This document shows positions 8,892-58,472 of a DNA stretch of 64,000 nt, in pieces. The notes beneath the pieces are model-generated. The model was given only the letters and a program-made list of their open reading frames with translations. It was not told the DNA's origin and made no database searches. The translations under genes were made by a program, and so were the position numbers. Numbering within the stretch: the first letter of the stretch is position 1; the number at the start of each line of letters is the position of its first letter. Origin of the DNA: Dictyostelium discoideum (lineage: Eukaryota); NCBI GenBank assembly GCA_000004695.1, contig CM000153.2, positions 5,280,001-5,344,000 on the forward strand, written 5' to 3'.

Positions 8892-9011
8892 TTCTTGTTT
8901 ATTTTTATTTATTTATTAAATATTTAAAGAAAGATAAATAAAAAAATAACAAAAAAAAAAAAAAAAAAAACAAAATTGAAAATGGGATTGGATTTTTTTT
9001 TTTTTATAATT

Positions 9012-9042
<31 letters not shown>

Positions 9043-9081
9043 GCGCAATTTTTGAAAATAATTTATTGTGATATTTTTAAT

Positions 9082-10919: not shown

Positions 10920-10963
<44 letters not shown>

Positions 10964-22046: not shown

Positions 22047-23965
22047 ATGATAAATAGATTAAATAGATTATGTAAAAAAAATATATTAAATAATATTTTA
22101 AATAATAACAAAAATGTTAGTAATAGAATAATAAATAGGTTTTATTGTAATTTAAATACAACAAATCTAAAAATAAATAATGATAATAATTTAAAAGAAA
22201 GTATTAGAGAAAAAATTAAAGATATACCAAGTTTAAATGAATTTTTAAGAAATAGTAATAATGAAATTAATGAAAATAATGAAAATAAAAGTAAAATTGA
22301 AACTGAAGAAGAATATGAATTACCACCATATTTATCATCATTACCAAATGATAAAGGTAATGGTAGAAAAGTTTGGATTGAAACCTATGGTTGTCAAATG
22401 AATGTTAGTGATGAAGAAGTTATTTGTTCAATTATGAAATCATCAGGATATACTATTTCAAATGATTTCAATACTGCTGATATTGTATTTTTAAATACAT
22501 GTTCAATTAGAGAGAATGCAGAAGCAAAGATTTGGTTACGTTTAACCGAGTTGAGAGCAATTAGAAGAAAACAAGGTAGACCAAATTTAATAGTTGGTGT
22601 TTTAGGTTGTATGGCAGAACGTTTAAAAGAGAAATTATTAGAGTCTGATATGAAAGTTGATATAGTGGTTGGACCTGATGCATACAGATCATTACCATCA
22701 TTATTGGCAACACTCGAAGATGGTGAGCAACAAACTGCAATCAATGTAATATTATCAGCTGATGAAACTTATGCTGATATTAAACCAGTTAGAAAATCTG
22801 ATAATCAAGTTTCAGCATATGTTTCAATTATGAGAGGTTGTAATAATATGTGTTCCTATTGTATTGTACCATTTACAAGAGGTAGAGAAAGAAGTAGACC
22901 AATTGATTCAATACTTAGAGAAGTTAAAGATTTATCTGATCAAGGTTTTAAAGAAATTACTTTATTAGGTCAAAATGTTAATTCATTTAATTATTATGAA
23001 GAATCAAATAATAATAATAATGAAAATTTTATTGATACTCAAAAAAATAAATTAGAATTGGAATCATTAAAACCAAGAGAAGGTTTTAAAACAATTTATA
23101 AATCACCAAAAAAAGGTATAACATTTACAAAATTAATGGAATTAGTTTCAAAAGTTGATCCTGAAATTAGAATTAGATTTACAAGTCCACATCCAAAAGA
23201 TTTTCCAGATGATGTAAATATTATTATTTATTTATTTATATATATATATATATTTTAGTTAATTGATTTATTAATTAATTTTTTTTTTTTTTTTTTTTAA
23301 TAATTTAGTTATTAGAATTAATTAAAAATCAACCAAATATTTGTAAACAATTACATATACCAGCACAAAGTGGTAGTAGTAAAGTATTAGAATCAATGAG
23401 AAGAGGATATACTAGAGAAAGTTATATAGAATTAATTGATACAATTAAAAGAGTATTACCAGGTTGTGCAATTTCATCAGATTTTATTAGTGGATTTTGT
23501 GGTGAATCAGATCAAGATCATAATGAAACAATATCATTAATGGAATATGTTGGATATGAGAATGCATTCATGTTTATGTATTCACTTCGTGAGAAAACTC
23601 ATGCACATCGTCAATTGAAAGATGATGTTCCAACAACACTTAAAAACTCAAGATTAACTCAAGTTGTAGATACATTTTACAAAAGATTAAAAGAAAAGAA
23701 TCAATTGGAGATTGGTAATCATCATTTAGTTTTAGTGGATGGTTTTAGTAAAAGATCAGAAAAAGATTTCGTTGGTAGAACTGATACCAATAAAAAAGTT
23801 TTAATCAGTAATGATATTGAAAATCAAGATATTAAAGTTGGTGAATATTATATAGTAGAAATTATAAAAGGTGATTCTGAAGTTACCTTAAAAGGTAAAC
23901 CAATTATGAAATCTTCAATTCAACATTTTAATAATATTTATAATCATAAAAATAAATTTATTTAA
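22047..23965 (+). CDS. CDK5RAP1/MiaB-like tRNA methylthiotransferase (radical SAM), probably mitochondrial. Exons join(22047..23213,23309..23965).
   Basis: MTTase N-domain [17 protein letters not shown]. Radical-SAM CxxxCxxC motif [21 protein letters not shown]. The phase-0 gtaaat intron is followed by [23 protein letters not shown] (TRAM-proximal region). The N-terminus is a basic presequence. Confidence 0.75.
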
Positions 23966-27683: not shown

Positions 27684-28631
27684 TTAAGGTAAGACCGTCC
27701 CAATTAATTTTGAAAATGCTGTATTTTTATCTCTTGATAATAACCAAGAGTTATAATAACGCTCAATACCATCAGTTAAACTTGGTTGTAATGGATAGTA
27801 ACCAATTAATGAAATTGCTTTAGAGGATGAAACATTTTGATTATAGGTTAAAAATTCAGTGAAAAAACTATTCTCTAATTTTGAAAGATATTCAATTGGT
27901 TTATTACTGAGATTACCACTAAAAGAGGCGATGCAAGTTACAACATCTTTAATTTTTTCATTATATGAATTTGCAATTAGAGTTTGACCTTTTAATTGTA
28001 AAGCATTTTTAATAACCAATTGATAAAAATTTACAAGATCAAATATATGAATAAAACCTTTAACACAATTTTCATCACCATAGATTTTAATAGAATCTTT
28101 TGATTTAGTTGCAGCTTCAAAATAATAACTTGCAACAGATTGATCCTTTCCATATAAAAAAGTTGGTTGAATAATAATTGCACCAAGAATTTCTTTATAG
28201 GTTTTCTCAATTTTAATTCTCCAATCAATAAATTTATGAGAAAAGTATGGAGTTGATTCATCATTTGTACCATTATTATTATTATTATTTTTAATATCAC
28301 CATAAACAACCACACCTGAAGTATAAATAAAGATTGTATTTGGTTTTTCATTATAAACTTTTAATAATGCCTCTTGAATTATAAATGGTGTTCTATGATC
28401 AGTTAAATCAGCAATTGCTTCAACAATGATATCTACTTTTAATGCTATTGGTAACCATTTTTCAATTTCTCTAACATCTGCTACAATTGGAATAATTTCA
28501 TTTCTTATTAATTGATCTGCACTTTCTTGTCTCCTTGTTAAACCATAAACTTTAAAACCATTTCTAACCAATACTAATGAAAGTTCACTTCCAATAAATC
28601 CACTTGATCCTAATATTAAAACATTTTTCAT
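27684..28631 (-). CDS. NAD(P)-binding Rossmann-fold reductase/epimerase (NmrA-like/atypical SDR)
   Basis: N-terminal MKNVLILGSSGFIGSELSLVLVRNGFKVYGLTRR (GxxGxxG). 315 aa, single exon. Confidence 0.6.
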   Translation of the reverse strand: MKNVLILGSSGFIGSELSLVLVRNGFKVYGLTRRQESADQLIRNEIIPIVADVREIEKWLPIALKVDIIVEAIADLTDHRTPFIIQEALLKVYNEKPNTIFIYTSGVVVYGDIKNNNNNNGTNDESTPYFSHKFIDWRIKIEKTYKEILGAIIIQPTFLYGKDQSVASYYFEAATKSKDSIKIYGDENCVKGFIHIFDLVNFYQLVIKNALQLKGQTLIANSYNEKIKDVVTCIASFSGNLSNKPIEYLSKLENSFFTEFLTYNQNVSSSKAISLIGYYPLQPSLTDGIERYYNSWLLSRDKNTAFSKLIGTVLP

Positions 28632-32946: not shown

Positions 32947-33029
32947 CCGGCTTTGGCGCAATGGTAGCGCGATTGACTGTAGTAACGAAAGTGATCAATC
33001 GGTTGCTAGTTCGAATCTGGCAAGCCGGA
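32947..33029 (+). tRNA. tRNA-Tyr (anticodon GUA) with an 11-12 nt intron 3' of the anticodon
   Basis: Acceptor stem CCGGCTT/AAGCCGG (C1:G72 as in eukaryotic tRNA-Tyr). D-arm GCGC-AATGGTA-GCGC. Anticodon stem ATTGA/TCAAT with loop CUGUAG, then an intron (taacgaaagtga). T-arm GCTAG-TTCGAAT-CTGGC. Discriminator A. A T6 run follows immediately. Confidence 0.85.
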
Positions 33030-33030
33030 C

Positions 33031-35240: not shown

Positions 35241-36436
35241 TCATTTATTATAATAATTATTTAGTGAGTTTATAAGCATTTCATTTGTAATTATATTTTC
35301 AATTGAATCAGATTTAGAACAATGATTTGATTCCGAAATTGATTTATTTGATAATAATAAAAGTTGTGAGAAAGAATTTTGATATCTTGTATATTCAATT
35401 TGAATTGGTAATAGCTTAATACAAGATTGGAAATTTGAAGATTGAATTAATGAAAACCATTCAATATATTCAACTTTTTCACAATTGAATTGTGATCCTA
35501 ATATATTATTAATATTCTCAATTTGTAATGGTTTTTCAACTCCAATATTGATAATATTAAAGCAACGATGTTGTTCTTGTATGTAGCTTTCAATATTAAT
35601 TAGACAATTTGAAATTGTTGTTGATAATGATGAAATTGGGGATGTTAAAAATGAGAATTCTATATTTGGATATGACTTGATTTCAATACATGATTGTAGA
35701 TATAATTGAACATAATCATTTGGATTTGAGAAAATTGAAGGGGTTCTTAATATAATTGTATTCAAATTGAATTTATCAGAAGCTTGTTTTAATAAATGTT
35801 CAGAGACTGCTTTAATTTGTAATGAACCATTTGAAAGTTGAGAAATTTTATCAACTGGTATTAAGGTTTCAAAATCTACAGTACTACTACTATTATTTCT
35901 ACCTAAATTAACATATAATGAAGATATCATTAAAATTTCTTTTATACCATTAGTGATTGAAAATTTAATAATTTCCTTTACAGTTTCGATTTTATATGAT
36001 TCATTTATATAGGTTGAATTTGTTGATTCTACTGCATCACTATCTTGATTAATAATTATTGAATTTACATTATTTGAAAGTATATTCAATTCATCAATTG
36101 GTAAACCAAAGTTATTCTTTGATGAATCACCAAAATAAACATGAATCTTTGAAATTTCAAATTCACTTAATTGTTCATAAAGTTTATATTGTTTAAAACT
36201 ATTTAAAATTTCATCATTTGAATTAATAGAATTAATTCTATCTTTTAATATATAATAAATATTTGAACAATTTGAATCTTTAACTAAATTAAATAATAAA
36301 TGAGTTCTTAAAATTCCAATTGAGCCAATTAATAAAATATTTTTGTTATTATTATCTAATTTTTGATGATGATTTTCATTGTTATTATTATTATTAATAT
36401 CTAATTTAATTTGATTCTCCCAAAATAGAATATCAC
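35241..36436 (-). pseudogene. Orphaned PKS C-terminal thioester-reductase-like (R, NAD_binding_4-type) domain. No start codon; separated from its PKS by a transposon insertion.
   Basis: On the minus strand the frame is open from the transposon end (36436) to the stop at 35241. It reads SDILFWENQIKLD...NILLIGSIGILRTHLLFNLVKDSNCSNIYYILKDR (GxxGxxG-like Rossmann motif typical of terminal reductase domains). The total is ~400 aa. The first Met (36089) lies after the nucleotide-binding motif. Confidence 0.6.
36432..36436. repeat. Target-site duplication ATCAC (left copy)
   Basis: Identical pentamer ATCAC at 39798..39802 immediately outside the other TIR. Confidence 0.75.
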
Positions 36437-36582
36437 TGTTGTAGGGAATTTTCCATAAAATTTCACTACAGTAGCGTAGTGAATTTTATTATTTAATTTC
36501 ACTACAGTAGCGTAGTGAAAAAAAAAAATCACTGACCTTAAATTTTTTTTTTTTTCAAAAAACAAATAAAGTTTATTAAATT
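36437..36582. repeat. Terminal inverted repeat (left) of the transposon; contains two copies of a 23-bp palindromic subrepeat TTTCACTACAGTAGCGTAGTGAA
   Basis: See mobile element; reverse complement of 39653..39797. Confidence 0.8.
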
Positions 36583-36639
36583 GAAATTTTATTTTTTGTT
36601 TTAATTATTATTTTATTTATTTTTATTATAATTATTGTT

Positions 36640-36672
<33 letters not shown>

Positions 36673-36813
36673 CAATTTTTTTTTTTTAAATTTTTTTCAA
36701 TTTTTATTTGTTTATTAAATTGTAATTTTATTTTTTGTTTTAATTATTATTTTATTTATTATTATTGTTAATTTTTTTTTTTTTTCAATTTTTTTTTTTT
36801 TAATTTATTTTTA

Positions 36814-39287
36814 TTAATTTATTTTTATTAACTCCCTGAGTTGTTCAATTGCTTGATTTACCATATCACTGTAAACACTGCACACAATTGAATTTTTTCT
36901 AGCTTTGTTACCTCTGGTGCATTTGATGTTTTTGCATTTTCCTTTGTATACAAAAAAGTCCAAATATAATTCGTTTTCTATTACAGTTTTTACACAATGT
37001 TGGTGAAATTGTTTTGATTTTAAGTGGAATGTTGGTAACATCATATTTGGATTTTTAACGATTAAAGCATCACCACTATTGACATATAGTACTTTGGGGG
37101 CTTTTTGGAGGAATTTAGTCAAATTTTCCTCTGAATCTAACTAATCTTCATTGCCATATTCAATGGATAAATTTTTTAAGAGTTGTATCGAATATATTAA
37201 TTAAGCGATCATTCTTTTTTTTTGAAATTTTTTTTTAATCAGATTTAGCAATTTTTTTTTTTTATCAAGTTTTTTCAATTTTTAATAAGTAATATTTTTT
37301 TTTATTTTTAATTATTTGTGTTAACAAATGTAATTTTTTTTTATTGATTTCAACACTTTGTTTTTATTTAATAATTTCCCCATACCCCCTTCTATTAATG
37401 CAACCAAATCAAGTTCTAATTTTTGTGTCCTTGTTGACTTTGTTTTTGCAACTTTTTTTGAAGGTATCACATTAACGATTTTTCCTATTGATGGTGATTT
37501 GGAAGGTGATTTAAATGGTGATTTAAATGGTGAATTGGAAGGTGATTTAAATGGTGAATTGGAAGGTGAAATGGATGGTGATTTGGAAGGTAATTTAAAT
37601 GGTGATTTGGAAGGTGATTTAAATGGTGATTTAAATGGTGAATTGGAAGGTGAAATGGATGTTGATTTGAGAGGTGATTTGGATGTTGATTTGAGAGGTG
37701 ATTTGGATGGTTTAGAATGTGATTTTAAAGGAGGTTTATTAACAATTGGTATCTTATGAGGACGGCCTCTGAGACGTTTAACAGTTGTTACTATACCACT
37801 ACCAGATTGTGGTATAGTATATGATGGTATTATTTGCACTTGAGGTATTGGTGGTACTATTTCTTTTAAATTCATATCCTTTCTCAAACAATTCATTAAA
37901 TTTGGCGCTGTTGGATTATTATTTAAAAATGGGAGTATTTCTTCTTGTTCCATTTCATTATTGAGTTTGTGTTGAAATGGATTATCGTTAATGATAGGTG
38001 GAATATTTGATGGATTGTTAAGAGCATCTTCCAAAACCCTAAATGGATCATTTTGTGTTACCAATTGATGCAAGTTGAAATTGGATAAATCCTTACCAAG
38101 ATTTTTAATAAACTGAACCAGAAATTCAATAACTTTCCCATCATTATTTAAATAAAGACCAGAAGTAAAAGAATCAATATCTTTTTGTATGTTTGGCGAT
38201 GTTCTAAAAATATCAACTGTTGATTGTTTATAAAGAACCAACTTGTTACCTCCTACAAAACCAGAGTATAAACCTTTTTTTTGAAGGCTATTGATTCCAT
38301 CTTCCAAAAATTCAAGTTTATAAAGTTGTTTAGTGTCTTCCTGTATTACCTTATGAATTTTACACAAAATCAATATTTTCTATTAGAATTAAATATAAAA
38401 TTTGTTAATTATTACTGTTTCATATATTATTAATCTTTATGTTTTAATTACTTACATTATTTTTTTTAATTTCTAGAAAGAGTACAGTATCACCAACTTT
38501 CAATCCCTTTGGTGGTTTTGAATTCCATTGATTTTGGTAACTTGTGAGATTTTCAAGAATAATAGCTGTTATTTCTTCTTTTGAAACATCTGAAACACCA
38601 ATTGATTGAGAGTCTTGTTCTGATTGCACATTAATAAACAAAGGTACAATACCAACAGCTTGAGATGGTGTCATTTTAATTGTTCTTGTTTTTGTATTAT
38701 TGTAATCATACAAAGCTTGTTTTAATAGTTCAGAAAGAGACCTAGAAGTACCATCAAGAAAACTAAAATTTATTTATAAATGATTAATTAATAAACATAT
38801 CGATAATTTATATTGTTCAAAATATCATACTCTTGTTGTTTTAATTTTGAGATCCTCTCCTTGATAGTTCGATTCAATCTTTCTACCATACCTTGAGTTG
38901 TTGGTGTACGAGGAGCTCCATGTGCTGACTTGGAGCCTGGAAAAAGTTTTAGGAATTCTTTTTGGACTTTGTTTTTAAATTCACGTCCATTATCGCAGTG
39001 CCATACTTTCACAGAGTTTTAATATAAAAGTTACAAAACATCATATAAAAAATGATTGATACCAAACCTTTTATTCTATTTCGTTGGCAAATGTCACACG
39101 TATCTACTGCATCAGATACAAAAGAATACAATCCCATATTATAATATTTAGTCTTGTAGTTCCCATAGGTTGCATCTCTTCCTATATGACCTTTATGCAT
39201 TTCTTCCCAGAGTGATACCATTCTATAATCATTAATTACTTCTAAACACACTTCTTTTGATATATTTCTATCTCCGCCACAATTCAT
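36814..39287 (-). CDS. Transposon-encoded integrase/transposase region: H2C2 zinc finger + rve DDE core + C-terminal region with AT-hook/SP[LF]K repeats, split over several ORFs (introns or decay).
   Basis: ORF 39009..39287 carries HKGHIGRDATYGNYKTKYYNMGLYSFVSDAVDTCDICQRNR (integrase H2C2). ORF 38788..39012 carries DNGREF...GAPRTPTTQGMVERLNRTIKE (rve core motif). ORF 37321..38373 has RLRGRPHKIP (AT-hook-like) and SP[LF]KS repeats. Further ORFs 38444..38713 and 36814..37122 lie on the same strand. Confidence 0.6.
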
Positions 39288-39652
39288 GACTTTTTTTTCA
39301 ATTCTAAATAATTTTTCTTTTCTGTTTCTGTTTTTTATTGGTCAGAATTTAAAAAATGATTGTGTTATGGTAAGGAAAAATATTTACTCATCATGTAAAA
39401 ATTTATAATTTTTATGTTTAGTATTTTCAAAATTATTATCTTCAATAAATTTTAAATAATTTATCTTGTTTCATTTTGGGAAAATGAAAATAAAAAAAAA
39501 AAAAAAAAAAAAAAAAGTTTTGTTGGGGAAAAAAAAAAAAAATTTTGGCGCAAAAAAAAAAAAAAAAAATAAAATAAAAAAAAAAAAAAATAAAATAAAA
39601 AAAAAAAAATAAAAAAACTTAAATAGAACTAATAATCAAATAAAAGATAATA

Positions 39653-39797
39653 ATTTAATAAACTTTATTTGTTTTTTGAAAAAAAAAAAAATTTAGGGTC
39701 AGTGATTTTTTTTTTTCACTACGCTACTGTAGTGAAATTAAATAATAAAATTCACTACGCTACTGTAGTGAAATTTTATTGAAAATTCCCTACAACA
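39653..39797. repeat. Terminal inverted repeat (right) of the transposon
   Basis: Reverse complement of 36437..36582 with two mismatches. Confidence 0.8.
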
Positions 39798-42700
39798 ATC
39801 ACCACCTGCAATATATTTATATTCAGTTTTATCATTTGGATCATTTTTTGTTGTTGTTGTTGTTTTTGCTGTTATTGGTAATAATTTTTCATCCATTTCT
39901 TTTTTCTTTTTATCTAATGAATCATTTATAATTTGATAAACCATACCAATTGAATTTGATTGAATTTGTTGAATTGTAATAAGATGTGGAGACCATTCTT
40001 TATCGACCCAATTCTTTAATTGTACTGTAATTAATGAATCAGCACCATAGTTTATCATTTTAATATTTGTATTAATTTTTGATGGATCAATTGAAAGAAG
40101 TTCAGAAACTTTGTTTAAAAATTTATTTTTTACATTTGTTGATGATGATGATTGATTGGTATCATTTTCCATTGATATTGAATTATCAACATTAATTGGA
40201 TTTAAAATGAAATCAAATTTTTGATGAAGTTTTTGTTTAAAACTTTTGAATAATGGCCAATTGAAATTATTAACAAATGCATTGGTTGGCATATTTGGAT
40301 TTTGAATTTGTAAATCTAAAGTACCCAATAATTGATTTGGTGATATTAATTCAACACCTTGACCACCTAGTACTGCTTCAACAAGTTTATGTCTTGAAAG
40401 ATAACCTCTATCACTTACACCACCAATGTTAATTGTAAATGATGGTAATCCAATTGATTTACGATATTGTGATAACGAATCCACTACACAACATGCTGAA
40501 ACATAACTACATTGATCAAATGAACCTAATACTGAAACTACTGATGATGCTAAAATGAAATTAATAATTTTCCAATCTCTTTTAATTGATAAATTATGTA
40601 AATTAACTGCACCAAACGTTTTTGCACTATGCGAAACATTTAAACTATTCATATCAATATCTTTAAGTTTTTTATTAATTTGTAAAGCTGCAAAATGAAA
40701 TATTGAATCAATATTTGTAATTGTTGGATTATCTTTTAAAACTTGATCAATTGTTTTATTAATTAAATTCCAATTACTAATATCACATTTTTTGAAATGA
40801 TATTTAATTTTATTGTTATTATTATTATTATTATTGTTGTTGTTATAATTCATTAAAAATTCTAATTCCCATTTTAATGATGATTTTGAAAGAATAATTA
40901 TATTTTCAACAGTTGAATTATATTTTGTTATCCATTTTAAAACTTCTAAAATTAAACCAGTTTGACCTGTAACCAATACATTTTTACCAAGATTTTTAAT
41001 TTTATAATCTGATTTTAATATTGAATAATCAATCATTGATTCTTTTTCAATTAATTTATCTATGATATCAGTATCATGTGAAATTACAATTTTACCAACA
41101 TGTTTTCTTTCTTTAATTGATTCAATTGATTTTTTAATATTTGAATTTGAAAATTCTGTAATTGGTATTAAAGCATTTAAAGTTTCATTTTCAATTGATT
41201 TTGAAATTGACTGTAATAATTTCTTAATTGTTGATTTTCCAACTTTTAAAATTTCAATACTATTATAACCAATATTATATCTATATCTACTATTATCAAT
41301 AAATTCATTTGGATTTAAATGAGTAGTTGTTAAATCTACAATTCTACCTTTTGGATTTAAACATTTAAAATTTGTATCCATAAATTCACTTGATAAAGTA
41401 TTAATAATTAAATCAACACCATGAGTTTCATAACCTAATTCAATTAATTTGTTTTTAATTTGTTTTTGATAATTTGTGTCTCTTGTTGAATAAATTCCAG
41501 TAATTAAATCACCATAGGTATTAATTAGATATTGTTTCTTTTCTTCTGATCCAACTGTAACAAATATTGGTGATGAATGATTATTTGATTTTAATATTTC
41601 CAATCCTGATAATCCAACACCACCAGATCCTGAATGAATTAATACTGATTCTTCATCTCTTAAATTACCAACATCATATAAACAATAAAGTGATGTTGAA
41701 TAAACTGCTGGAATTGAAGCTGCTTGAACATGTGTAATCTTTGATGGTTTATGACATGCTAATAATGAATCAATAATAATATGAGATGATGATGTTTCAT
41801 ATGCAATACCATAAACTTGATCACCAACTTTAAATTCTTTAGATGATTTAATTCCAACACGACTTACTACACCAGAAAAATCAAAACCAATACCAGCTTC
41901 ATTTACTTTTATCATTTCATTATATTTCAAATAATCTTTATAATTTATACCAGTTGCTTTAACTTTTACTTCAATTTCATATGGTTCTAAATCAATTTGT
42001 TTTGAATTTAATTGATATTCAAAATGTTCATCTAATTTTGAAACTAATTGATCTTGTTGTTTTGATAAATCATGATATGATTCAGATTTATAAGAATTCT
42101 TTAAATTTTTTAATTCTTTTTTATACATTTCAAAATAAACAGTACCACTATTTTTTATATAAAATTCTCTTTGAATATTATTTTTTGGATTAATTAAATA
42201 ATCAATGGTTTTGAATAAATCCAAATCATTTGTTAATGAATCTTTATCAAAATCCAATGTAAATAATTGTAAAGTTGGAATTTCATCAAAGTATCTTGCT
42301 GCACCTAAAACTGATGATGATAAATAATTACTTGATTGTGAATCACATGTAATTAAAACATGAGTACATTTTGATTTTAATTCATATAATTTTTGATTAA
42401 TTTGAACATATTCAAATGTTACTGATTTAAAGTTTTCCAATGTTAATTGTTCAATTGATTTAATAAAATAAATGATTGAATTATTTGTAATTGTTGTTGA
42501 TAATTTGTAAAATTCTTCAATTGTTGATACTTTTATTATTTTACAATTATTATAATGATTTTCAAATTTATTAATTAATTGTTGTTGTTGGAGTTGTTCA
42601 TCTTGATAACAATATAAAATTACTTGATCAAATGTGTTTATTGTTTTTGGTTGTAATTTTAATGATGGTTTTTGAGCTTGAATAATAATTGATTTAATAT

Positions 42701-42803
42701 CACTATCAGATATACTTGAAGATTTAATCATTATATCAGAATTGAAATTACAATTAACCAATAAGTTTTTCAATGATTCTTTATTATTTTCATTATTTAA
42801 TAG

Positions 42804-42868
<65 letters not shown>

Positions 42869-45800
42869 CATTTATTATTAAATAACCATTTGGTGTTAAA
42901 ATTTGATAAATTTGATTTAATGAATATTCAATATCTTTTGTTAAATTTGAAATATTTGAAACAATAATTAAATCATAATATGATGGATTTAATTTTTGTT
43001 TTTCTAATAATGAATTATCAACATCTAAACCTAATGAACGATAAAGAATACTTAAATAACCCTTATCTACTTTTGATAATTCTAATTTAGCATCTTTTAA
43101 AATTGATGAATTATTATCACTCCATGTATATTCAATATCAATTTCATAATGTGGATTTTCTTCGAGTAATGAATTGATTTCATTCAATAATAAAGTTGAT
43201 TTTGATAAATTATTACCACCAAATTCTAAAATTCTAAATTCCATCTTTCTATTAATTAATGGTTTAATAGTTTCTATAACAACATTTGGAATTAATAAAC
43301 CATCATCTACTTGATTATTTTGATAAATTGATTTAAATTCTAATGGTGATTGAATTTGTGAATCTTTTGATTGAAGATATGGTGTATAAATAAAATCAGA
43401 TGGAGTTTCAATTAATAATGGATCTTTAACTGGTGTTAATGATTTAACTACCAAGTTATCAACTTCAATGATAACAGTACCATCTTCTAACATAACAACG
43501 ATAGATGAAGAGAGTAAATCATCAGATGGAGATGATTTTAAAGTTGAATAAATAAAGATACTTGAATGTTCATCTCTATTTTTTGGAATATTTGAAGCAT
43601 AATATCTTAAACCTTCAACTTTATCTGTTACAATTTTACAATTCTTTTGAATGTATAGAATAACGGTACCATGGAAACAAGCATCAATGAGTGGACAATT
43701 GAAAAATGATTGTTCATCATGAAAGTTTTCAGGTAATTCTAAGGATATTTCAGTTAATGAACAATTATCACCAATATAACATTCAACTACTTTACTAAAA
43801 ATACCATAAAAGTTTGCACCCAATTGAGTTTTCATTAGTGAATAAAATTCATCCCATGGAATTGATGATAAATTACATTTTGTTTGTTTAATATCTTGAA
43901 TATCCAATTTTTGTTTTTCTTCATGATAATTATCATTACTATTTAAGTGGAAATTAGAATTTGAAGTATTTATCCATTGATTATTCATTTCATCTTTTAA
44001 ATGAAATTGTGCTCTATATTCACTTTTACCAGTTTGATAAACATTTGTTTGTAAACATTGCCCAATACCATCGGTTAATACAAATGGTACCTTAAATTCA
44101 ATTGAATTAATTGTTAAATCTTGATTTGGATATAATTTAAATATATTATCAATATAACCTGTTCCTGGGAAATAACATTTATCAGATACATTATGACCTT
44201 TTAAATATTTGAATGCATCTTTTCCAGTATCAATTATTGTTTGATATGATTTAATAAATGGATTTGAATCTTGCATTGAATTACCGAGAATTGAAATTGG
44301 TGGTCCAATTAAATTATTTTTATGTTCAATTGATTTATTTAACCAATAATGTTGATCATCCCATTGATATAATGGTAAATTAAAATTACTAATAGCCTCA
44401 ATATTGCTATTTATATTATTAAATTGACATTTAAAATTAATATCATAAGCATCATCACAAAATAATTGTGAAATTGATTTTTGAAATTCTTCAACATCAT
44501 TCTTTTTCTTGTGAAGTGTTGAATAAACTGATATTGATTCACCATTTCTAAAGTATTGTGATTGTTTTGGAATCATTTGTTTTAAATAAAATGATAATGT
44601 TGGATGTGGTGCAATTTCAATGAATACAATATTTGAACCGATTTGATTATCTTCAATATGTTTATATAAATTTGAAATTGTTTGAGTGAATGAAACTGGT
44701 TTTGAAATATTATCAAAGAAATATTCAGAATCAAAAATAGTTGATTCATTAAATAAATTTGATGTAACTGTTGAAAATGTTGGAATAACAGGTTGACTTG
44801 ATTGAATATTTAAATTTAAAATATCATCTTTAATTATATTTTGACTACTTGTATGAAAACTTGATAAACTTCCTAACATTGCTGAGAATATTTCTTTTTC
44901 TTTTAATTCTTTTGAAATTTCATTTAAAATTTGTTCATTACCTGCGATTACAATTGATGATGGTGAATTATAACATGCAATTTCAATAGTTGGGTAACGT
45001 GACATATAGTTAGTTTTATATTCATCTGAACTAATGTTAATTGATAACATTTTACCTGACCCATTTGTTCTTATTTGTAATGTTGATCTATGATAAATTA
45101 AATAACATAATTGGTCAATATCAATCATACCTGAACAATAAGCAGTTGTTACTTCACCAAGACTATGACCCAACATAAATGATGCTTTTATACCCCAATG
45201 TTTATAAAGTTCATATAATGATACTTGAATAATTACAGTTGATGGTTGTGCCATTGTTTGTTCATGAACTGAACATTTATCACTATCTTGAATTGCTCTT
45301 AATTTCTCTAAAATTGAATATCCAAAATAATTTTTCATTTTATTATCTAGCATATCCATCGAATTTCTAAATACTTTTTCATTTTTATATAATTCTAATG
45401 CCATTGTATTATATTGTGATCCTTGACCACAAAATACAAATACAGTTATTGGATTATTATTTTTATTTGTAATTGTAATATTTGAAGAAGTACTACTTGA
45501 AGTTTGATATTTAACTTGATTTTCAACATTATTAAAATCATTCCAATCTTTTGCAACAATTACTGATCTTTGATAAAGTGATGTTGATTTATTATAAATT
45601 TGATTTTTAACAAATTCTTCAAAACTATATTGTGATTCATATTCTTTATTTTCAATAATTAATGATTGATATTTTTTTAATGATTCAACTGAATTTGCTG
45701 AAAATGGAATTAAATAATTATTTATTTTTATATTATTATGATTATGATTATGATTATGATTATTATTATGATTATTTATATTATTATTTATAGTATTATA

Positions 45801-47230
45801 ATTAAATTGAGATAATACTAAACAACAATTTGAACCAGTTGCACCAAAATTATTAACAACCATTGAAGTATTTTTAAATTTATTAAATGGAATTGGTTCA
45901 GTTACAACTTTTAAATTCCATTCTTTAAATTTAATTGCTGGATTTGGTGTTTTAAAATGAATATTTGGTGCAAAACATTTGTTTTTATACATTAAACAAC
46001 ATTTGATTAATGAAGCAATACCAGAAGCAGCTTCACAATGACCAATATTTGATTTAAATGATCCAATTAATAATGGAGTATCAGTTGAACGAGTATCTTT
46101 AAAAACTTTTGAAATACCTTCAACTTCAATTGGATCACCAGTTGGTGTACCAGTGCCATGTGCTTCAACATAATCTATATCAGATGGTTTAACAGTTCCA
46201 TTGGTTGATTGAATTGCATTTTTTAAATTTTCAGATTGTGAAATTGATGATGGTGAATAGAAATTTGATTTATCAGAATAACCAATACCATCAACATTTG
46301 CACTTGCACCATTTATTGTACAATAAATTCTATTACCATCTTTAATTGCATCTTTTAAATTCTTTAAAACCACAACACCAATACATTCACTTCTTACATA
46401 ACCATCAGCTGATGCATCAAATGATTTACATCTACCATTTGATTTACTTAATATATTCAATGAAGAATATGCTTTAAAAAAGTAAGAGTCTAATAAAATT
46501 AAAAAATTTAATTAATAAATAAATATAAAGATAAAATTAAAAAAACTATTAAAAAAAAATACATACCAAGTAATATATTAACACCACCAACAATTGACAT
46601 TTTTGATTTTTTATTTTTGATTGAATCATATCCTAATGCGATTGCATTTAAAGATGATGAACATGCAGTATCTAGAGTTATTGAATTACCATGAAGATCA
46701 TAACAATAGGAGATTCTATTTGAAATCGCATGATTTAAACTTGAGAATACATTTGATTTTACTTCATTTTTATTGATATTATGATAGTCACTTTCGGTAC
46801 AACCAATGAAAACCGAAGTATCTGTACCTTTGATTGAAATTGGATCAATTAATGAATCTTCTAATGCTTCCCATGTACATTTTAATAATAATCTTTGAAT
46901 TGGGTCAATGGTTGGTGCTTCATTTGGATTAATACCAAAAAAGAGTGGATCAAATGATTTAACTTCATCCAATGGTAATAGTCCTGAATAATTATTTGCA
47001 ATTTCATGATTTTTGAAAAAGTTATCATTGAATCTTTCTGATGTTTTCACTACACCATCGAAACCATTTATTAAATTATTCCATAATGTTTGAGGTGTAT
47101 TGTTTCTTTCATTTTCAATACTTCCACTTGGTAATCTAAAGCCAACACCAACAATTGCAACTAAATTTTCTTCAACATGTTTATCATCAACTTGTAAAAT
47201 TTCTGCTTTATTTATTTTATTTTGTTTCAT
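39738..47230 (-). CDS. Iterative type I polyketide synthase (KS-AT-DH-cMT-ER-KR-ACP). Its C-terminus reads into the transposon TIR and stops there. Exons join(complement(46567..47230),complement(39738..46479)).
   Basis: KS: DTACSSSL (exon 1), [19 protein letters not shown]: [18 protein letters not shown]: [17 protein letters not shown]. cMT-like: [15 protein letters not shown]: [19 protein letters not shown]: [19 protein letters not shown]: [11 protein letters not shown]. The phase-1 intron (donor ctt g|gtatgt, acceptor ttttattag) splits GGVNILL | [24 protein letters not shown]. The final 8 codons ([17 protein letters not shown]) are encoded by the TIR. Confidence 0.85.
39798..39802. repeat. 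Target-site duplication ATCAC (right copy)
   Basis: Matches 36432..36436. Confidence 0.75.
42803..42868 (-). repeat. (CAA)n microsatellite encoding a 22-residue polyGln inside PKS1 (cMT/linker region)
   Basis: ttgttgttg... run on the plus strand. The protein reads [37 protein letters not shown] versus [19 protein letters not shown] in the paralog. Confidence 0.85.
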
Positions 47231-48049: not shown

Positions 48050-48886
48050 TTAAAAATATTTTTTTTTTATTCTTAATAATGGAGTATTATTATTAATATT
48101 AATAATTCCATCAGTACCATTTTCATAAGAAATTTTAAAAATTCCATTTGTATAGTAATAGAAACCTTCGTCGAATTTTAAAAAAAATACAAGACCAGTT
48201 AATATATTTGAAAATTCTACGAAATAATTTGCAGAATATTTCAATTGACCAACTGAAATTGGATTTAAATTAAAAGAGAAAACATTTACAAAATCATTTA
48301 AAGAATTTGTTTTTTCTTGATATATTAAAACACCATTTTCAGTTTCACTTTCAATGATTCTATATATTTTTGTATTATTTGTTAATTTTGGAGATTGACC
48401 AATTTCATTGCCAATTTCAATTGGAAAATAACAAGATAGAAAAGTGAAACAAGCATCAACCAAGTATTTTTTATTCTTAAATTCCATTACATTGCAATAA
48501 TGAAGTCCGATATTTGGGTATACCAAATTCTCTCCACCGTCAATTGCTTTAATTAATTGAACTTTTATTCCAAATTCTTGTAATAACATACCAAATAATA
48601 TATTATGGTTTAAACAAATATTGCCAACCTCTTTCTCTATCATTGTTTCAACAATATAATCCATATCGATTGTTGGTCCATCTTTTAAAACGTCAATATT
48701 ATTATATGGAAAATGTTCTGCAAATTTCACCATTAACAATTCAAAATCATCCAAACAATTTAATTGAAAATCAATTTCTAAATTTAATTTTGGTAATATA
48801 ATTTCTTTAAAATTATATTTTTTATTTGCTAATTTTAATTCTTCATAACTGAAATGTAAAAAATAGTCTTTGTCATTAATTTCCAT
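48050..48886 (-). CDS. Arylamine N-acetyltransferase (NAT)-family protein
   Basis: 278 aa. The NAT catalytic-cysteine motif region reads EKEVGNICLNHNILFGMLLQEFG (compare RGGWCLQVNHLLYWAL in human NAT). Downstream His/Asp region is HYCNVMEFKNKKYLVDACFT (compare HLLLQV...YIVDAGFG). The gene lies between the two divergent PKS genes. Confidence 0.6.
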   Translation of the reverse strand: MEINDKDYFLHFSYEELKLANKKYNFKEIILPKLNLEIDFQLNCLDDFELLMVKFAEHFPYNNIDVLKDGPTIDMDYIVETMIEKEVGNICLNHNILFGMLLQEFGIKVQLIKAIDGGENLVYPNIGLHYCNVMEFKNKKYLVDACFTFLSCYFPIEIGNEIGQSPKLTNNTKIYRIIESETENGVLIYQEKTNSLNDFVNVFSFNLNPISVGQLKYSANYFVEFSNILTGLVFFLKFDEGFYYYTNGIFKISYENGTDGIININNNTPLLRIKKKYF

Positions 48887-50550: not shown

Positions 50551-53500
50551 ATGGATAATAGTTATTTAAATAATCCCCAATTTGATATTAATAATGGTAA
50601 TAAAGAAGTTACAGATGATGATAATAATAAAAATAATCAAGATAATTTAGTAGCAATTGTTGGTGTTGGTTTTAGATTACCAAGTGGTGAAAATGAAAGA
50701 AATAATACACCTCAAGCATTATGGAATAATTTAATAAATGGTTTCGATGGTGTAGTGAAAACATCGGAAAGATTCAATGATAACTTTTTCAAAAATCATG
50801 AAATAGCAAATAACTATTCAGGACTATTACCATTGGATGAAGTTAAATCATTTGATCCACTCTTTTTTGGTATTACTCCTAATGAAGCACAAACTATAGA
50901 TCCTCATCAAAGATTATTATTAAAATGTACATGGGAAGCATTAGAAGATTCATTAATTGATCCAATATCAATCAAAGGTACTGATACTTCTGTTTTCATT
51001 GGCTCTTCAACAAATGATTATCTTACATTAAATAGAAATGAAGTAAAATCAAATGTGTTTGGTAGTATGGCTCATTCAATTGCAAATAGAGTATCCTATT
51101 GTTATGATCTTCATGGTAATTCAATAACTCTAGATACTGCATGTTCATCATCTTTAAATGCAATCGCATTAGGATATGATTCAATCAAAAATAAAAAATC
51201 AAAAATGTCAATTGTTGGTGGTGTTAATATATTACTTGGTATGTATTATTTTTAAAATTTTTTATTATATTTTATTTTTTACAAAATTATTAATTAAAAT
51301 TATATTATTATTTTTTTTTAAAAGACCCATATCCATATAAGGCATTCTCAATTTTGAATATGTTAAGTAAATCAAATGGTAGATGTAAATCATTTGATGC
51401 ATCAGCTGATGGATTTGTTAGAGGTGAATGTATTGGTGTTGTTATTTTAAAGAATTTAAAAGATGCAATTAAAGATGGTAATAGAATTTATTGTACAATA
51501 AATGGTGCAAGTGCAAATGTTGATGGTATTGGTTATTCTGATAAATCAAATTTCTATTCACCATCATCAATTTCACAATCTGAAAATTTAAAAAATGCAA
51601 TTCAATCAACCAATGGAACTGTTAAACCATCTGATATAGATTATGTTGAAGCACATGGCACTGGTACACCAAATGGTGATCCTGTAGAAACCGAAGGTAT
51701 ATCAAAAGTTTTTAAAGATACTCGTTCAACTGATACTCCATTATTAATTGGATCATTTAAATCAAATATTGGTCATTGTGAAGCTGCTTCTGGTATTGCT
51801 TCATTAATCAAATGTTGTTTAATGTATAAAAATAAATGTTTTGCACCAAATATTCATTTTAAAACACCAAATCCAGCAATTAAATTTAAAGAATGGAATT
51901 TAAAAGTTGTAACTGAACCAATTCCATTTAATGAAAATAAAAATACTTCAATGATTATTAATAACTTTGGTGTTACTGGTTCAAATTGTTGTTTAGTATT
52001 ATCTCAATTTAATAATACAAATAAACAAAAACAACAAATGAAAACAAAAATAAATAATTATTTAATTCCATTTTCAGCAAATTCAGTTGAATCATTAAAA
52101 AAATATCAATCATTAATTATAAATAGTAAAGAAAATGAATTAAAATATAGTTTTGAAGAATTTGTTAAAAACCAAGTATTTATTAAACCAACATCACTTT
52201 ATCAAAGATCTGTAATTGTTGCAAAAGATTGGAATGATTTTAATAATGTTGAAAATCAAGTTAAATATCAAACTTCAAGTAGTACTTCTTCAAATATTAC
52301 AATTACAAATAAAAATAATAATCCAATAACTGTATTTGTATTTTGTGGTCAAGGATCACAATATAATACAATGGCATTAGAATTATATAAAAATGAAAAA
52401 GTATTTAGAAATTCGATGGATATGCTAGATAATAAAATGAAAAATTATTTTGGATATTCAATTTTAGAGAAATTAAGAGCAATTCAAGATAGTGATAAAC
52501 GTTCAGTTCATGAACAAACAATGGCACAACCATCAACTGTAATTATTCAAGTATCATTATATGAACTTTATAAACATTGGGGTATAAAAGCATCATTTAT
52601 GTTGGGTCATAGTCTTGGTGAAGTAACAACTGCTTATTGTTCAGGTATGATTGATATTGACCAATTATGTTATTTAATTTATCATAGATCAACATTACAA
52701 ATAAGAACAAATGGGTTAGGTAAAATGTTATCAATTAACATTAGTTCAGATGAATATAAAACTAACTATATGTCACGTTATCCAACCATTGAAATTGCAT
52801 GTTATAATTCACCATCATCAATTGTAATCGCAGGTAATGAACAAATTTTAAATGAAATTTCAAAAGAATTAAAAGAAAAAGAAATTTTCTCAGCAATGTT
52901 AGGAAGTTTATCAAGTTTTCATACAAGTAGTCAAAATATAATTAAAGATGATATTTTAAATTTAAATATCCAATCAAGTCAACCTGTTATTCCAACATTT
53001 TCAACAGTTACATCAAATTTATTTAATGAATCAACTATTTTTGATTCTGAATATTTCTTTGATAATATTTCAAAACCAGTTTCATTCACTCAAACAATTT
53101 CAAATTTATATAAACATATTGAAGATAATCAAATCGGTTCAAATATTGTATTCATTGAAATTGCACCACATCCAACATTATCATTTTATTTAAAACAAAT
53201 GATTCCAAAACAATCACAATACTTTAGAAATGGTGAATCAATATCAGTTTATTCAACACTTCATAAGAAAAAGAATGATGTTGAAGAATTTCAAAAATCA
53301 ATTTCACAATTATTTTGTGATGATGCTTATGATATTAATTTTAAATGTCAATTTAATAATATAAATAGCAATATTGAGGCTATTAGTAATTTTAATTTAC
53401 CATTATATCAATGGGATGATCAACATTATTGGTTAAATAAATCAATTGAACATAAAAATAATTTAATTGGACCACCAATTTCAATTCTCGGTAATTCAAT

Positions 53501-56500
53501 GCAAGATTCAAATCCATTTATTAAATCATATCAAACAATAATTGATACTGGAAAAGATGCATTCAAATATTTAAAAGGTCATAATGTATCTGATAAATGT
53601 TATTTCCCAGGTGCAGGTTATATTGATAATCTTTTAAAATTATATCCAAATCAAGATTTAACAATTAATTCAATTGAATTTAAAACACCTTTAATATTAT
53701 CAGATGATAATGGTCAATTTTTACAAACAAATGTTTATCAAACTGGTAAAAGTGATTATAGAGCTCAATTTCATTTTAAAGATAATAGAACAAATGTATG
53801 GGTTCAAACATGTACTGCTAATTTTCAATTATATAATAATGGTAAAGTTGATAAATTAAATTTAGAAGAAATTAAATCAACAAAATGTAATTTATCATCA
53901 ATACCATGGGATAAATTTTATCCACATATAAAAAATAGAACTGGTTTAAACTATAAAGACAAATTTCAAAATACAATTGAATGCTATCTTGGTGATAATT
54001 GTTCATTAACTGAAATATCATTAGAATTACCAGAAAACTTTCATGATCAAGAATCATTTTTTAATACACCAATTTTAGATATTTGCTTCCATGGTTCAAT
54101 TGTTTTAATTAAGGATAATTGTAAACTTGTTTTGGATAAAATTGATGGTTTTAAATTATATACATCAAACATTCCAAAAAATAGATTTGATCATTTAAGT
54201 ATTTTTGTATATACAACTATGAAATCAACAAAATCAAATTCATACAATTCAACATACACAGTAATGTTAGAAGATGGTACTGTTATACTTGAAGTTGAAA
54301 ATTTAATATGTACATCATTAACACCAGTTAAAGATCCATTATTAATTGAAATTCCAACTGATATGTATTATACTCCATATCTTCAATCAAAAGATTCACA
54401 AATTCAATCACCATTAGAATTTAAATCAATTTATCAAAACAATCAAGATAATGATAGCTTATTAATTCCAAATGTTGTTTTAGAAACAATTAAACCATTA
54501 ATTAATGAGCAAATGGAATTTAGAATTTTAGAATTTGGTGGTAATAATTTATCAAATTCAACTTTATTATTGAATTCAATCAATTCATTACTTGAAGAAA
54601 ATCCACATTATGAAATTGATATTGAATATACATGGAGTGATAATAATTCATCAATTTTAAAAGATGCTAAATTAGAATTATCAAAAGTAGATAAAGGTTA
54701 TTTAAGTATTCTTTATCGTTCATTAGGTTTAGATGTTGATAATTCATTATTAGAAAAACAAAAATTAAATCCATCATATTATGATTTAATTATTGTTTCA
54801 AATATTTCAAATTTAACAAAAGATATTAAATATTCATTAAATCAAATTTATCAAATTTTAACACCAAATGGTAATTTAATAATAAATGAACAACAACCAA
54901 ACAATGAAAATAATGAAAATAATGAAGATTCATTGAAAAACTTATTGGTTAATTGTAATTTCAATTCTGATATAATGATGAAATCTTCAAGTGTATCTGA
55001 TAGTGATATTAAATCAATTATTATTCAAGCTCAAAAACCATCATTAAAATTACAACCAAAAACAATAAACACTTTTGATCAAGTCATTTTATATTGTAAT
55101 CAAGATGAACAATTCCAACAACAACAACAATTAATTAATAAATTTGAAAGTCATTATAATAATAATTGTAAAATAATAAAAGTATCAACAATTGAAGAAT
55201 TTTATAAATTATCAACAACAATTACAAATAATTCAATCATTTATTTTATAAAATCAATTGAACAATTAACATTGGAAAACTTTAAATCAATAACATTTGA
55301 ATATGTTCAAATTAATCAAAAATTATATGAATTTAAATCAAAATGTACTCACGTTTTAATTACATATGATTCTCAATCAAGTAATTATTTATCATCATCA
55401 ATTTTAGGTGCAGCAAGATACTTTGATGAAATTCCAACTTTACAATTATTTACATTTGATTTTGATAAAGATTCATTAATTAATTTAGACATTTCGGTTA
55501 TAGATCATTTGATAGATCCAAAACAAAATACATTGATTGAATTCTTTATTAAAAAAAATGGTAAAGTTTATTTTGAAAGATTTAAAAAAGGTTTAAAGAA
55601 AAATTCTTTTAAATCAGAATCATATCATCAAATTACAAATGAACAAGAAATTTTAATTTCAAAATTAGATGAAAATTTAGATTATCAATTAAAATCAAAA
55701 GATTCAATTTTAAAACCATATGATATTGAAGTAGAAATTAAAGCAACTGGTTTAAATTATAAAGATTATTTAGTATATAGTGGTTTAATAAAATTAAAAG
55801 GTGATAGTGTTGATTTTGGTCTTGATTTTTCTGGTAGAGTTAGTCGTGTTGGAATTAAATCATCAAAAGAATTTAAAGTTGGTGATGAAGTTTATGGTAT
55901 TGGACAATCAACATCATCATCTCATATTATTATTGATTCAATGCATGCATGTCATAAACCATCAAAGATTACACATGTTCAAGCAGCTTCAATTCCAGCA
56001 GTTTATGCAACTTCAATTCATTCTTTATATAATATTGGTAATTTAAGAGAAGGAGAATCAATTTTAATTCATTCAGGATCTGGTGGTGTTGGATTATCAG
56101 CATTGGAAATATTAAAATCAAATAATCATTCATCTCCAATATTTGTTACAGTTGGATCAGAAGAAAAGAAACAATATCTAATTAATACCTATGGTAATTT
56201 AATCACTGGAATTTATTCAACAAGAGATACAAATTATCAAAAACAAATTAAAAACAAATTAATTGAATTAGGTTATGAAACTCATGGTGTTGATTTAATT
56301 ATTAATACTTTATCAAGTGAATTTATGGATAGCAATTTCAAATGTTTAAATCCAGAAGGTAGAATTGTAGATTTAACAATTACTCATTTAAATCCAAATG
56401 AATTTATTGATAATAATAAATTTAAATATAATTTTGGTTATCATAATATTGAATTATATTATTGTGAAAAGCCAACAATTAAGAAACTATTACAGTCAAT

Positions 56501-57779
56501 TTCAAAATCAATTGAAAATAATACATTAAATTATTTAATTCCAATTACAGAATTTTCAAATTCAAATATTAAAAAAGCAATTGAATACATTAATGAACGT
56601 AAACATGTTGGAAAAATTGTAATTTCTCATGATACAGATATTACTAATAAATTAATTGAAAATCAACCTAAAATTGATTACTCTTTATTGAAATCAAATT
56701 ATAAAATTAAAAATCTTGGTAAAAATGTATTGGTTACAGGTCAAACTGGTCTAATTTTAGATATTATAAATTGGATTATGAAATATAATTCAACTGTTGA
56801 AAATATAATTATTCTTTCAAAATCATCAATGAAATGGGAAATGGAATTTTTAATTAACAACAATAAGACAAAAATTAAATTCTATTATAAAAGATGTGAT
56901 ATTGGTGGTGATTCAGATTCAATTAATAAAACATTTGATAAATTGTTTACAGAAAATCCAACAATTACAAACATTGATTCAATATTCCATTTTGCAGTTG
57001 TACAAATTACAAGAAAAGTAAAAGATATTGATATGAAATCATTAAATATTTCACATGATGCAAAAACAATTGGTGCAATTAATTTACATAATCAATCAAT
57101 TAAAAGAGATTGGAAATTAAGTAATTTCATATTAGCATCTTCAATTCTTTCAAAAGTTGGTTCATTAGATCAATGTGGATATGTTTCAGCATGTTGTGTA
57201 CTTGACTCATTTTCAAAATATCGTTTATCTATTGGATTACCTGCATTATCAATTAATATTGGTGCTATGGGTGGAAGTGGAATGGTTGCAAGAAGTGAAC
57301 TTGTTGAAACTGTACTTAATGGTCAAGGTTATAATTTAACCTCAACAAACCAACTATTAGGTACAATTGATTTATTAATTCAAAATCCTGGTCAAGAATC
57401 AAATAATTTAATGGTTGGTAATTTTAATTTCCCAGTTTTTAATAATTTCAAACAAAAGATTCATCAAAAATTTGATTTTATTTTTAATGCTCTTGATTCA
57501 AACTCTGAAAATGGTGATGGTAGTAATATCAAAAATTCAACAAATATTAAAGATAAATTTTTAAACAAAGTATCAGAATTTCTTTCAATTGATTCATCTA
57601 AAATTAATAATGATATTAAATTAATGAATTATGGTGCTGATTCATTAATTACTGTTCAATTAAAGAATTGGGTTGATAAAGAATGGTCTCCAAATTTAAT
57701 TACAATTCATCAAATTCAATCAAATTCAATTGGTATGGTTTGTCAAATTATAAATGATAATTTTGAAAAAAAAAAATAA
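50551..57779 (+). CDS. Iterative type I polyketide synthase (KS-AT-DH-cMT-ER-KR-ACP), a paralog of PKS1 in inverted orientation. Exons join(50551..51238,51325..57779).
   Basis: Same domain motifs as PKS1 ([83 protein letters not shown]). The phase-1 intron (ctt g|gtatgt ... aaaag) splits GGVNILL | [24 protein letters not shown]. The stop comes right after the ACP (...[11 protein letters not shown]). Confidence 0.9.
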
Positions 57780-57967: not shown

Positions 57968-58337
57968 CTCACTGAGAAAATTATCAAACGTTATCAAATA
58001 AATAAGTTGATTTGATAATAACGTTTCTTTAAAGAAAAAATAATAAAAAAAAAAAAATCAATTATTATCAAATTATTAAGTTAATAAAAAGAAACGTTAG
58101 GTAACAAAATCATTCCCAAAGATATTTCAGATTTTTTTAATTCAACGAATTACAAATTTTTATTTTTTTAAATTTTTTTTTTCAATAAAAAAAAGAAAAA
58201 TCATCAAACAAAAAAACAAGATATTTTCCATGGTTTTTTTTTATTTTTTTTTTTTTTGCTTTTATATAAATAACGTTTATTTTTTTTTATTTTTTTTTAT
58301 TATTTTTTTATTTAAACTAAATAGTATAATAAAAAAA

Positions 58338-58401
58338 ATGGAACAAGAAAATAATAATAACAAAGACATAAAAACAATTGATAGTATCAATATCAATAAT
58401 G

Positions 58402-58472
<71 letters not shown>

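Follow-up and report, generated by a model that had tools for sequence, protein, structure and literature searches.

The DNA transposon Tdd-4 is reported to have been first described in Dictyostelium discoideum by Wells in 1999, and the same account is said to give its gene six introns, the sixth with AT-AA borders, and alternative 5' splicing around the SPXX region. Tdd-4 was classed by Bao, Kapitonov and Jurka in 2010 as a member of the Ginger2/TDD group, for which a DDE-type transposition mechanism has been proposed (PMC2836005). Elements of this group show a TGTNR terminal pattern, and the absence of a GPY/F and a YPYY motif sets Ginger2 apart from Ginger1 and from gypsy integrases (PMC2836005). 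Within Ginger2 only TDD-4 and TDD-5 make a target duplication of 5 bp, the other elements having one of 4 bp, and the lengths given for the two are 3,839 bp (TDD-4) and 3,783 bp (TDD-5; Table 2 of PMC2836005). The locus considered here is DDB_G0287117 of D. discoideum AX4, where a Tdd-4 copy lies within a stretch of 64,000 nucleotides (GenBank assembly GCA_000004695.1, contig CM000153.2, positions 5,280,001 to 5,344,000 of the forward strand). This whole stretch is called the window, and all coordinates without further label refer to it.

The window element occupies positions 36437-39797 and is 3,361 bp long. It is very probably a non-autonomous, internally deleted Tdd-4 copy of the ~3.4-kb size, with complete ends and a crippled transposase gene, and it splits a type I polyketide synthase gene.

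Family identity and loss of the catalytic core

By its sequence the element belongs to the Tdd-4 family of Ginger2/TDD DNA transposons and not to Tdd-5. For the comparison, zinc-finger and DDE segments of TDD4 and TDD5 were taken from the alignment in the supplement to Bao, Kapitonov and Jurka 2010 (PMC2836005). The TDD4 segments (XP_629668) match the window in three pieces at 96-98% amino acid identity, whereas those of TDD5 (AF298206) reach only 51-62%; a central stretch of about 98 residues of the TDD4 segment (roughly 52-149) is left without a match in the window. A protein search with the element product returned Dictyostelium proteins only, and no evidence contradicting the Tdd-4 assignment was met. 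The initial annotation of this DNA, made from the letters alone, had described an intact-looking Tdd-4/Tdd-5-like Ginger2/TDD transposon and had proposed comparison with the references of both families. The Tdd-4 half of that description is borne out, and the Tdd-5 half is not.

The word "intact-looking" does not survive alignment to a full-length relative, an independent Tdd-4 copy (L001) in the D. discoideum assembly GCA_054883475.1. With three foreign 760-bp insertions taken out (see below), this copy is 3,789 bp long and 98.2% identical to the window copy; its termini are exactly the same, and its target duplication is a separate one, TCATC. Aligned with L001, the window copy is gapped by 17, about 389-394, 1 and 87 bp, and the last three of these gaps map as follows.

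39012 to 39015, minus strand: junction of the 389-bp internal deletion, AAAACTCT joined to GTGAAAG, with a 2-nt CT microhomology
37399 to 37400, minus strand: 1-bp deletion (GGTTGC-ATTAAT), a frameshift that gives LDLVALIEG... in place of LDLVAINRRG...
37359 to 37360, minus strand: junction of the 87-bp deletion, private to the window copy, inside a divergent patch at 37000-37400

The 389-bp deletion removes the 3' portion of intron 2 and all of exon 3, then intron 3 and ~60 nt at the start of exon 4, and the junction 23-mer of the deleted class is ATTAAAACTCTGTGAAAGTATGG. The protein thereby loses 104 residues, the first catalytic Asp (in LVYD) among them. Full-length proteins (P0002, P0003, P0025, P0026, P0029 and P0030) have these 104 extra residues between CQRNRIK and VWHCDNG. 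LVYD aligns with the first catalytic Asp of gypsy-type integrases in the published alignment (PMC2836005), and the 104-residue stretch contributes to the Pfam rve match of the full-length protein, a match that the window product does not give.

The 17-bp deletion falls just after codon 4 of exon 1 and is a frameshift, so that MKQDKLFKIY and a stop are read in place of MKQDKINEIINYLKFIEDNNF..., the intact N-terminus found in P0025, P0026 and P0029. The AINRRG reading disrupted by the 1-bp deletion is present in P0002, P0020 and P0025. In the last short exon the GAA of other copies is TAA in the window copy (37201-37203), a premature stop. The 1-bp deletion, the 87-bp deletion and this stop are private to the window copy, and the 389-bp and 17-bp deletions are common to a subfamily (see below). 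Because the first Asp and 103 of its neighbours are lost, and because two frameshifts and a nonsense codon are added to this, the window copy, as its frames read, is unable to make active transposase. The initial annotation had matched the element to published Tdd-4 by its terminal repeats, its 5-bp duplication, its integrase-like protein and a length of ~3.8 kb, and had left full-length status to be judged from other copies; all of these likenesses hold except the length, the window copy falling short of L001.

Nearly all differences private to the window copy cluster at 37000-37400, where 15 substitutions accompany the 87-bp deletion; outside this patch its identity to other copies is ~99.5%. 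The patch may stem from gene conversion by a variant copy, from local mutation or from misalignment in AT-rich sequence.

Ends of the element

The ends of the window copy, in contrast to its coding region, are complete. Their features are the following.

36432 to 36436: left copy of the target-site duplication, ATCAC; the identical pentamer lies beyond the opposite tip
39798 to 39802: right copy of the target-site duplication, ATCAC, abutting the element tip
36437 to 36582, plus strand: terminal inverted repeat (TIR) at the 3' end of the transposase gene, starting TGTTGTAGGG, with variant C at position 18 and T at position 102
39652 to 39797, minus strand: TIR at the 5' end of the transposase gene, with variant A at 18 and C at 102
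36461 to 36483 and 36497 to 36519, plus strand: two 23-nt quasi-palindromic subrepeats, TTTCACTACAGTAGCGTAGTGAA, 36 bp start to start, candidate transposase binding sites
39715 to 39737 and 39751 to 39773: two further 23-nt subrepeats, in the TIR at the gene 5' end
36583 to 36813: AT-rich subterminal region with a direct repeat (36575-36625 and 36714-36764, spaced 139 bp)

Over 146 nt each TIR is the reverse complement of the other except at positions 18 and 102 (2 mismatches), as the initial annotation had found apart from placing the start of the second at 39653. The similarity collapses abruptly from position 147, and a longer ungapped inverted arm (269 nt at 84%) is AT-rich low complexity. 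Both tips read TGTTG...CAACA, which fits the TGTNR pattern with TG...CA termini. The ATCAC pentamers, also seen earlier, stand immediately beside the two TIRs, and the chance of a 5-bp flank match is ~0.004 at the local base composition (21% G+C).

The claim of two 23-bp palindromic subrepeats per TIR is likewise upheld, in that TTTCACTACAGTAGCGTAGTGAA has exactly four matches within the window, two per TIR, against a shuffle expectation of 0.00 (no shuffle gave any); the sequence is quasi-palindromic, its two 8-bp arms separated by a 6-nt centre. The subrepeats are invariant in four other Tdd-4 copies examined and nearly conserved in one diverged copy (~88% identical over its 5' end), and this conservation gives a binding-site role some support short of proof. 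The four subrepeats are likely transposase binding sites.

A dispersed subfamily of deleted copies

Two further copies in GCA_054883475.1, one of 3,426 bp (L004, duplication CAAAT) and one of 3,435 bp (L005, duplication GCTAA), have 389-bp and 17-bp deletion junctions identical to those of the window copy and lie in unrelated flanks. The corresponding CQRNRIK/VWHCDNG join occurs in four further AX4 proteins (DDB_G0292352, DDB_G0276645, DDB_G0282083 and DDB_G0292954), which sit on records of three different lengths. Since the same two junctions are found at different sites, each deletion apparently has a single origin, and the defective element then multiplied. Such multiplication would require transposase from full-length copies, so the window copy can be assigned to a non-autonomous subfamily mobilised, as the distribution of copies implies, by transposase from elsewhere.

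In five copies (the window copy, L001, L003, L004 and L005) homology stops exactly at the TGTTG and CAACA tips, and each has a perfect 5-bp duplication, all five of different sequence. The initial annotation had named conserved ends in other copies as the check on a larger segmental inversion, and these common tips exclude it. All five copies agree in the TIR mismatches too, with A and C at the gene 5' end and C and T at the gene 3' end. The two mismatches are therefore fixed, family-level differences between the ends and say nothing about the age of the insertion, so the earlier inference of a recent insertion from near-perfect TIRs has to be given up. The TIR similarity of a DNA transposon, unlike the divergence of long terminal repeats (LTRs), is no age clock. 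Better evidence of a fairly recent event is provided by the open halves of the host reading frame together with the perfect target duplication. Overall, the window copy diverges from the other copies by 0.7-1.9%.

A second, shorter non-autonomous form is seen at L003, where a Tdd-4 derivative of 1,742 bp occupies positions 6300-8041. Its ends are perfect, its duplication is ATATA, and it keeps only ~785 bp at the 5' side and ~485 bp at the 3' side that match the window copy.

Insertion into a polyketide synthase gene

The Tdd-4 copy splits a type I polyketide synthase in the linker between its ACP and reductase domains. The two parts of the host gene are these.

39803 to 47230, minus strand: polyketide synthase, part upstream of the insertion, with exon 1 at 46511-47230 and the main exon at 39803-46460
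35244 to 36436, minus strand: polyketide synthase, part downstream of the insertion, with a C-terminal NAD_binding_4 domain (thioester reductase type, E 2e-17)

The upstream part has the domain order KS-AT-ER-KR-ACP, the N-terminal part of KS being encoded in exon 1. When 36437-39802 is removed in silico, a single open minus-strand frame of 2,617 codons runs from 46460 to 35243; the excision joins ...KYIAGGD to ILFWENQ..., and an empty site would read ...AATAGAATATCACCACCTGC.... Because excision restores the host frame, and because homology to other copies stops at the tips, the element is a genuine insertion. Protein searches for an uninterrupted synthase allele, with a junction-spanning query and with 630 residues upstream, run on cluster representatives with a ceiling of 8,000 candidates, gave only paralogues (52% or less) among the matches listed.

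In this strain the split synthase is presumably truncated or a pseudogene. Loss of the reductive release domain could change the metabolite profile of the laboratory strain relative to wild isolates, and the split gene is relevant to work on Dictyostelium secondary metabolism.

The insertion also accounts for an annotated protein. The AX4 model DDB_G0287117 (P0023; XP_637424, Q54KU6) has 1,049 residues, and its exons map to the window at 100%. The model (35244-39287, minus strand) joins Tdd-4 exons, the open reading frame (ORF) at the Tdd-4 3' end and the reductase tail of the synthase, running across the TIR, and it includes the private frameshifted reading LDLVALIEG. Named as an integrase-domain protein, DDB_G0287117 is an artefactual transposon-synthase chimera produced by gene prediction, and it should not be used as a real protein.

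Coding content and gene structure

The genes of the element lie on the minus strand and are laid out as follows.

39388 to 39474, minus strand: exon 1, ATG at 39472-39474, frameshifted by the 17-bp deletion after 39465
39068 to 39327, minus strand: exon 2, with the HHCC zinc-binding domain (HKGH...CDIC, about 39075-39206)
38831 to 39005, minus strand: exon 4 remnant, second half of the integrase core (rve_3; alignment to TDD4 in the PMC2836005 supplement)
38763 to 38830 and 38380 to 38455, minus strand: introns 4 and 5, both GT-AG
38456 to 38762, minus strand: exon 5, read from the sequence; its spliced product is found in P0001 and P0023 at 100%
37321 to 38379, minus strand: exon 6, C-terminal transposase half, ending at the frameshift-induced stop at 37321
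37201 to 37212, minus strand: start of the last short exon, ATGATCGCTTAA, placed by alignment to L001
36817 to 37140, minus strand: last coding block, a conserved 108-codon frame (LDSEENLTKF...EQLRELIKIN) at the element 3' end

Exon 2 starts at 39327 or 39303, depending on the choice between two AG acceptors, and introns 1, 4 and 5 are GT-AG by inspection. The initial annotation had read here an H2C2 zinc finger with an rve (DDE) integrase and an AT-hook/SPxK-repeat region. The zinc finger is confirmed by a Pfam match to Integrase_H2C2 (36.3 bits against a cut-off of 25.5), and the last region by exon 6, which has the AT-hook core RGRP at 37747-37782 and, at 37486-37701, 15 SPXX repeats in tandem. 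A complete rve/DDE domain is not present: only the C-terminal half of the core remains, with an rve_3 score of 21.4 bits (E 2e-4) that is below the Pfam cut-off. Of the DDE triad, whose three residues are all present in full-length family members, the exon 4 remnant keeps the second Asp, in HCDNG (38992-38994), and the Glu, in MVERLN (38881-38883), the first Asp being gone.

The last short exon in its intact reading is MIEELIDSIKLLRNLAIEYGNEE, found in P0001. The 108-codon frame has 93-94% amino acid identity in L001, L004 and L005, where it is annotated as a gene of 110-114 amino acids; a Pfam scan matched it to no family, and a single-sequence AlphaFold model has a pLDDT of 36, too low to be informative. 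Pfam scans of five minus-strand ORFs of the element and of P0023 gave no reverse transcriptase or RNase H, and neither the GPY/F nor the YPYY motif is found in the full-length relative P0025.

Proposed mechanism

By analogy with DDE transposases and integrases, the insertion would have occurred by cut-and-paste transposition. Transposase would bind the TIRs and expose 3'-OH groups at the CA ends; these would then join target phosphates 5 bp apart in the synthase gene, in the linker from ACP to the C-terminal reductase domain, and gap repair would produce the ATCAC duplication. The window copy would supply only the DNA substrate for such a reaction. Its two TIRs and four quasi-palindromes are complete, and it could remain open to mobilisation by the transposase of full-length Tdd-4 copies elsewhere in the genome. 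Transposase supplied in trans may in the same way have spread the deleted subfamily to several chromosomes.

Alternative explanations

The perfect ends and the target duplication might suggest that the element is an intact Tdd-4 or Tdd-5, autonomous through an active transposase of its own. A long open frame likewise covers the zinc finger and part of the core as well as AT-hook and SPXX repeats, and gene predictors bridge the deletion by a frame-keeping 62-nt GT...AG pseudo-intron (P0001, P0020). The bridge does not bring back the 104 missing residues, however, and the frameshifts after codon 4 and at the 1-bp deletion and the TAA in the last exon also speak against an active product, as do a length well below those of TDD-4 and TDD-5 and the low identity to TDD5. 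An autonomous element is thus highly improbable here, and the alignment to full-length copies rules it out. Still less probable is an origin from an LTR retrotransposon of the kind with a gypsy-type integrase (Skipper, DGLT-A), of which the element would be a fragment, or from a local segmental inversion. The protein domains are indeed typical of retroelement integrases, but the terminal repeats are inverted rather than direct, the ORFs scanned gave no reverse transcriptase or RNase H match, and five copies at unrelated sites have the same exact termini with 5-bp duplications of their own. Both forms of this explanation are ruled out by the common termini and separate duplications. Nor is it at all likely that DDB_G0287117 is a real chimeric host gene, in which a domesticated integrase-derived DNA-binding protein is fused to the synthase reductase. 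The AX4 annotation does unite Tdd-4 ORFs and the synthase C-terminus in one model; yet that model must splice over the 3' TIR and the AT-rich subterminal region, and it depends on a private frameshift. Moreover, both TIRs and the target duplication are kept, the synthase frame is seamless after removal of the element, and the transposon part is 98-99% identical to ordinary copies.

A different kind of proposal grants that the copy is defective and gives the deleted class a function: it would encode a catalytically dead protein, with zinc finger, half core, AT-hook and SPXX repeats, that binds Tdd-4 ends and acts as a KP-like repressor of transposition. The frame-preserving GT...AG remnant left by the deletion (the 62-nt pseudo-intron) fits this proposal, as does a frame that is open from MNCGGD to the C-terminus in copies of the L004/L005 type and in the AX4 models P0020, P0022, P0021 and P0001. 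The deleted subfamily is also multi-copy, and Tdd-4 ORFs are transcribed and regulated, the 19 Tdd-4 elements being collectively up 25-fold in rblA-null cells (PMC3386910). However, the splice at the cryptic acceptor is one made by gene predictors, and in the unspliced form translation ends 19 codons past the zinc finger. The copies are diverged by only 0.3-1.5%, so the open frame may reflect youth and says little about selection, and the window copy itself has further C-terminal damage. A repressor is accordingly unlikely, though less so than the alternatives above.

Some points weigh against the account of a non-autonomous, internally deleted Tdd-4 copy mobilised in trans, or against its novelty. 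The Pfam rve match is sub-threshold even in the full-length protein (26.6 against 32.6 bits), and because of this the DDE assignment rests on the published alignment and on motif position. The 23-nt subrepeats are taken as protein-binding sites by inference rather than from a footprint, and mobilisation in trans is likewise deduced from the distribution of copies rather than observed. Tdd-4, its group and this annotated AX4 locus are already known, and the locus adds little new biology. Wells is also said to have described, in 1999, both a 3.8-kb and a deleted 3.4-kb class of Tdd-4; if so, the window copy would be a member of the latter.

Neighbouring genes and other insertions

A second polyketide synthase (50551-57779, plus strand; KS-AT-DH-ER-KR-ACP) lies ~3 kb from the split one, in divergent orientation and with nearly the same domain order. 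An N-acetyltransferase gene (48050-48886) is located between the two synthases, and an ORF with FNIP repeats follows the second (58230-59834). The neighbouring synthases may form a small secondary-metabolite gene pair. On the other side, the first 34,000 nucleotides of the window hold ordinary single-copy genes, for Rad52 (10434-11240), a G-protein alpha subunit (18021-19535), a radical SAM/UPF0004 enzyme (22047-23258), an epimerase (27684-28631) and a cytochrome P450 (29664-30986). Because its surroundings are single-copy genes, the window copy lies in gene-rich DNA, unlike the transposon clusters L002 and L003. ARAGORN reports a tRNA-like gene at 32947-33030 (plus strand) with an undetermined four-base anticodon (gtag), which may be an intron-containing eukaryotic tRNA misread under bacterial settings.

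The three insertions in the full-length comparator L001 (3108-3867, 5299-6056 and 7108-7867) are of one 760-bp element with CACAGC...GCTGTG inverted ends; one insertion has a TA duplication and another a 30-bp target deletion. More copies of it occur in the Tdd-5-containing locus L003 (from 2609, from 4068, and at 8677-9307), which was examined for Tdd-5 inverted repeats and is a mosaic of nested insertions. The 760-bp element was not found in the window. ARAGORN finds no tRNA gene in it, and one stretch is tRNA-like by eye. One AX4 gene has homology to tdd-4 as well as to thugS (PMC3386910), and the 760-bp element may be thugS. Three insertions within 3.8 kb suggest that the element targets Tdd-4 or transposon clusters.

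Comparison with known systems

The window copy shares with Tdd-4 the TGTTG...CAACA termini, the ~146-bp TIR core, the 5-bp duplication, the HHCC zinc finger, the lack of GPY/F and YPYY motifs, the AT-hook with 15 SPXX repeats, and 98.2% nucleotide identity to a full-length copy. It differs from full-length Tdd-4 in having 3,361 rather than 3,839 bp, in lacking 389 bp of the catalytic core and in its 17-bp frameshift deletion. With Tdd-5 (AF298206), the sister family in D. discoideum, it has in common the architecture, the 5-bp duplication and a transposase of the HHCC plus DDE type; however, the zinc-finger and core segments are only 51-62% identical in amino acids, and for the Tdd-5-like proteins P0004 and P0005 the overall identity is 38-41%.

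The broader parallel is with the Ds elements of Ac and with KP and other deleted P elements. The window element differs from these in coming from the integrase-like Ginger2 superfamily, and a repressor action of the deleted Tdd-4 product, of the kind known for KP, is only hypothetical. In both cases, however, complete ends accompany a crippled transposase gene, and one deletion junction recurs in several dispersed copies, a sign that the deleted form was amplified once the deletion had arisen, by transposase acting in trans.

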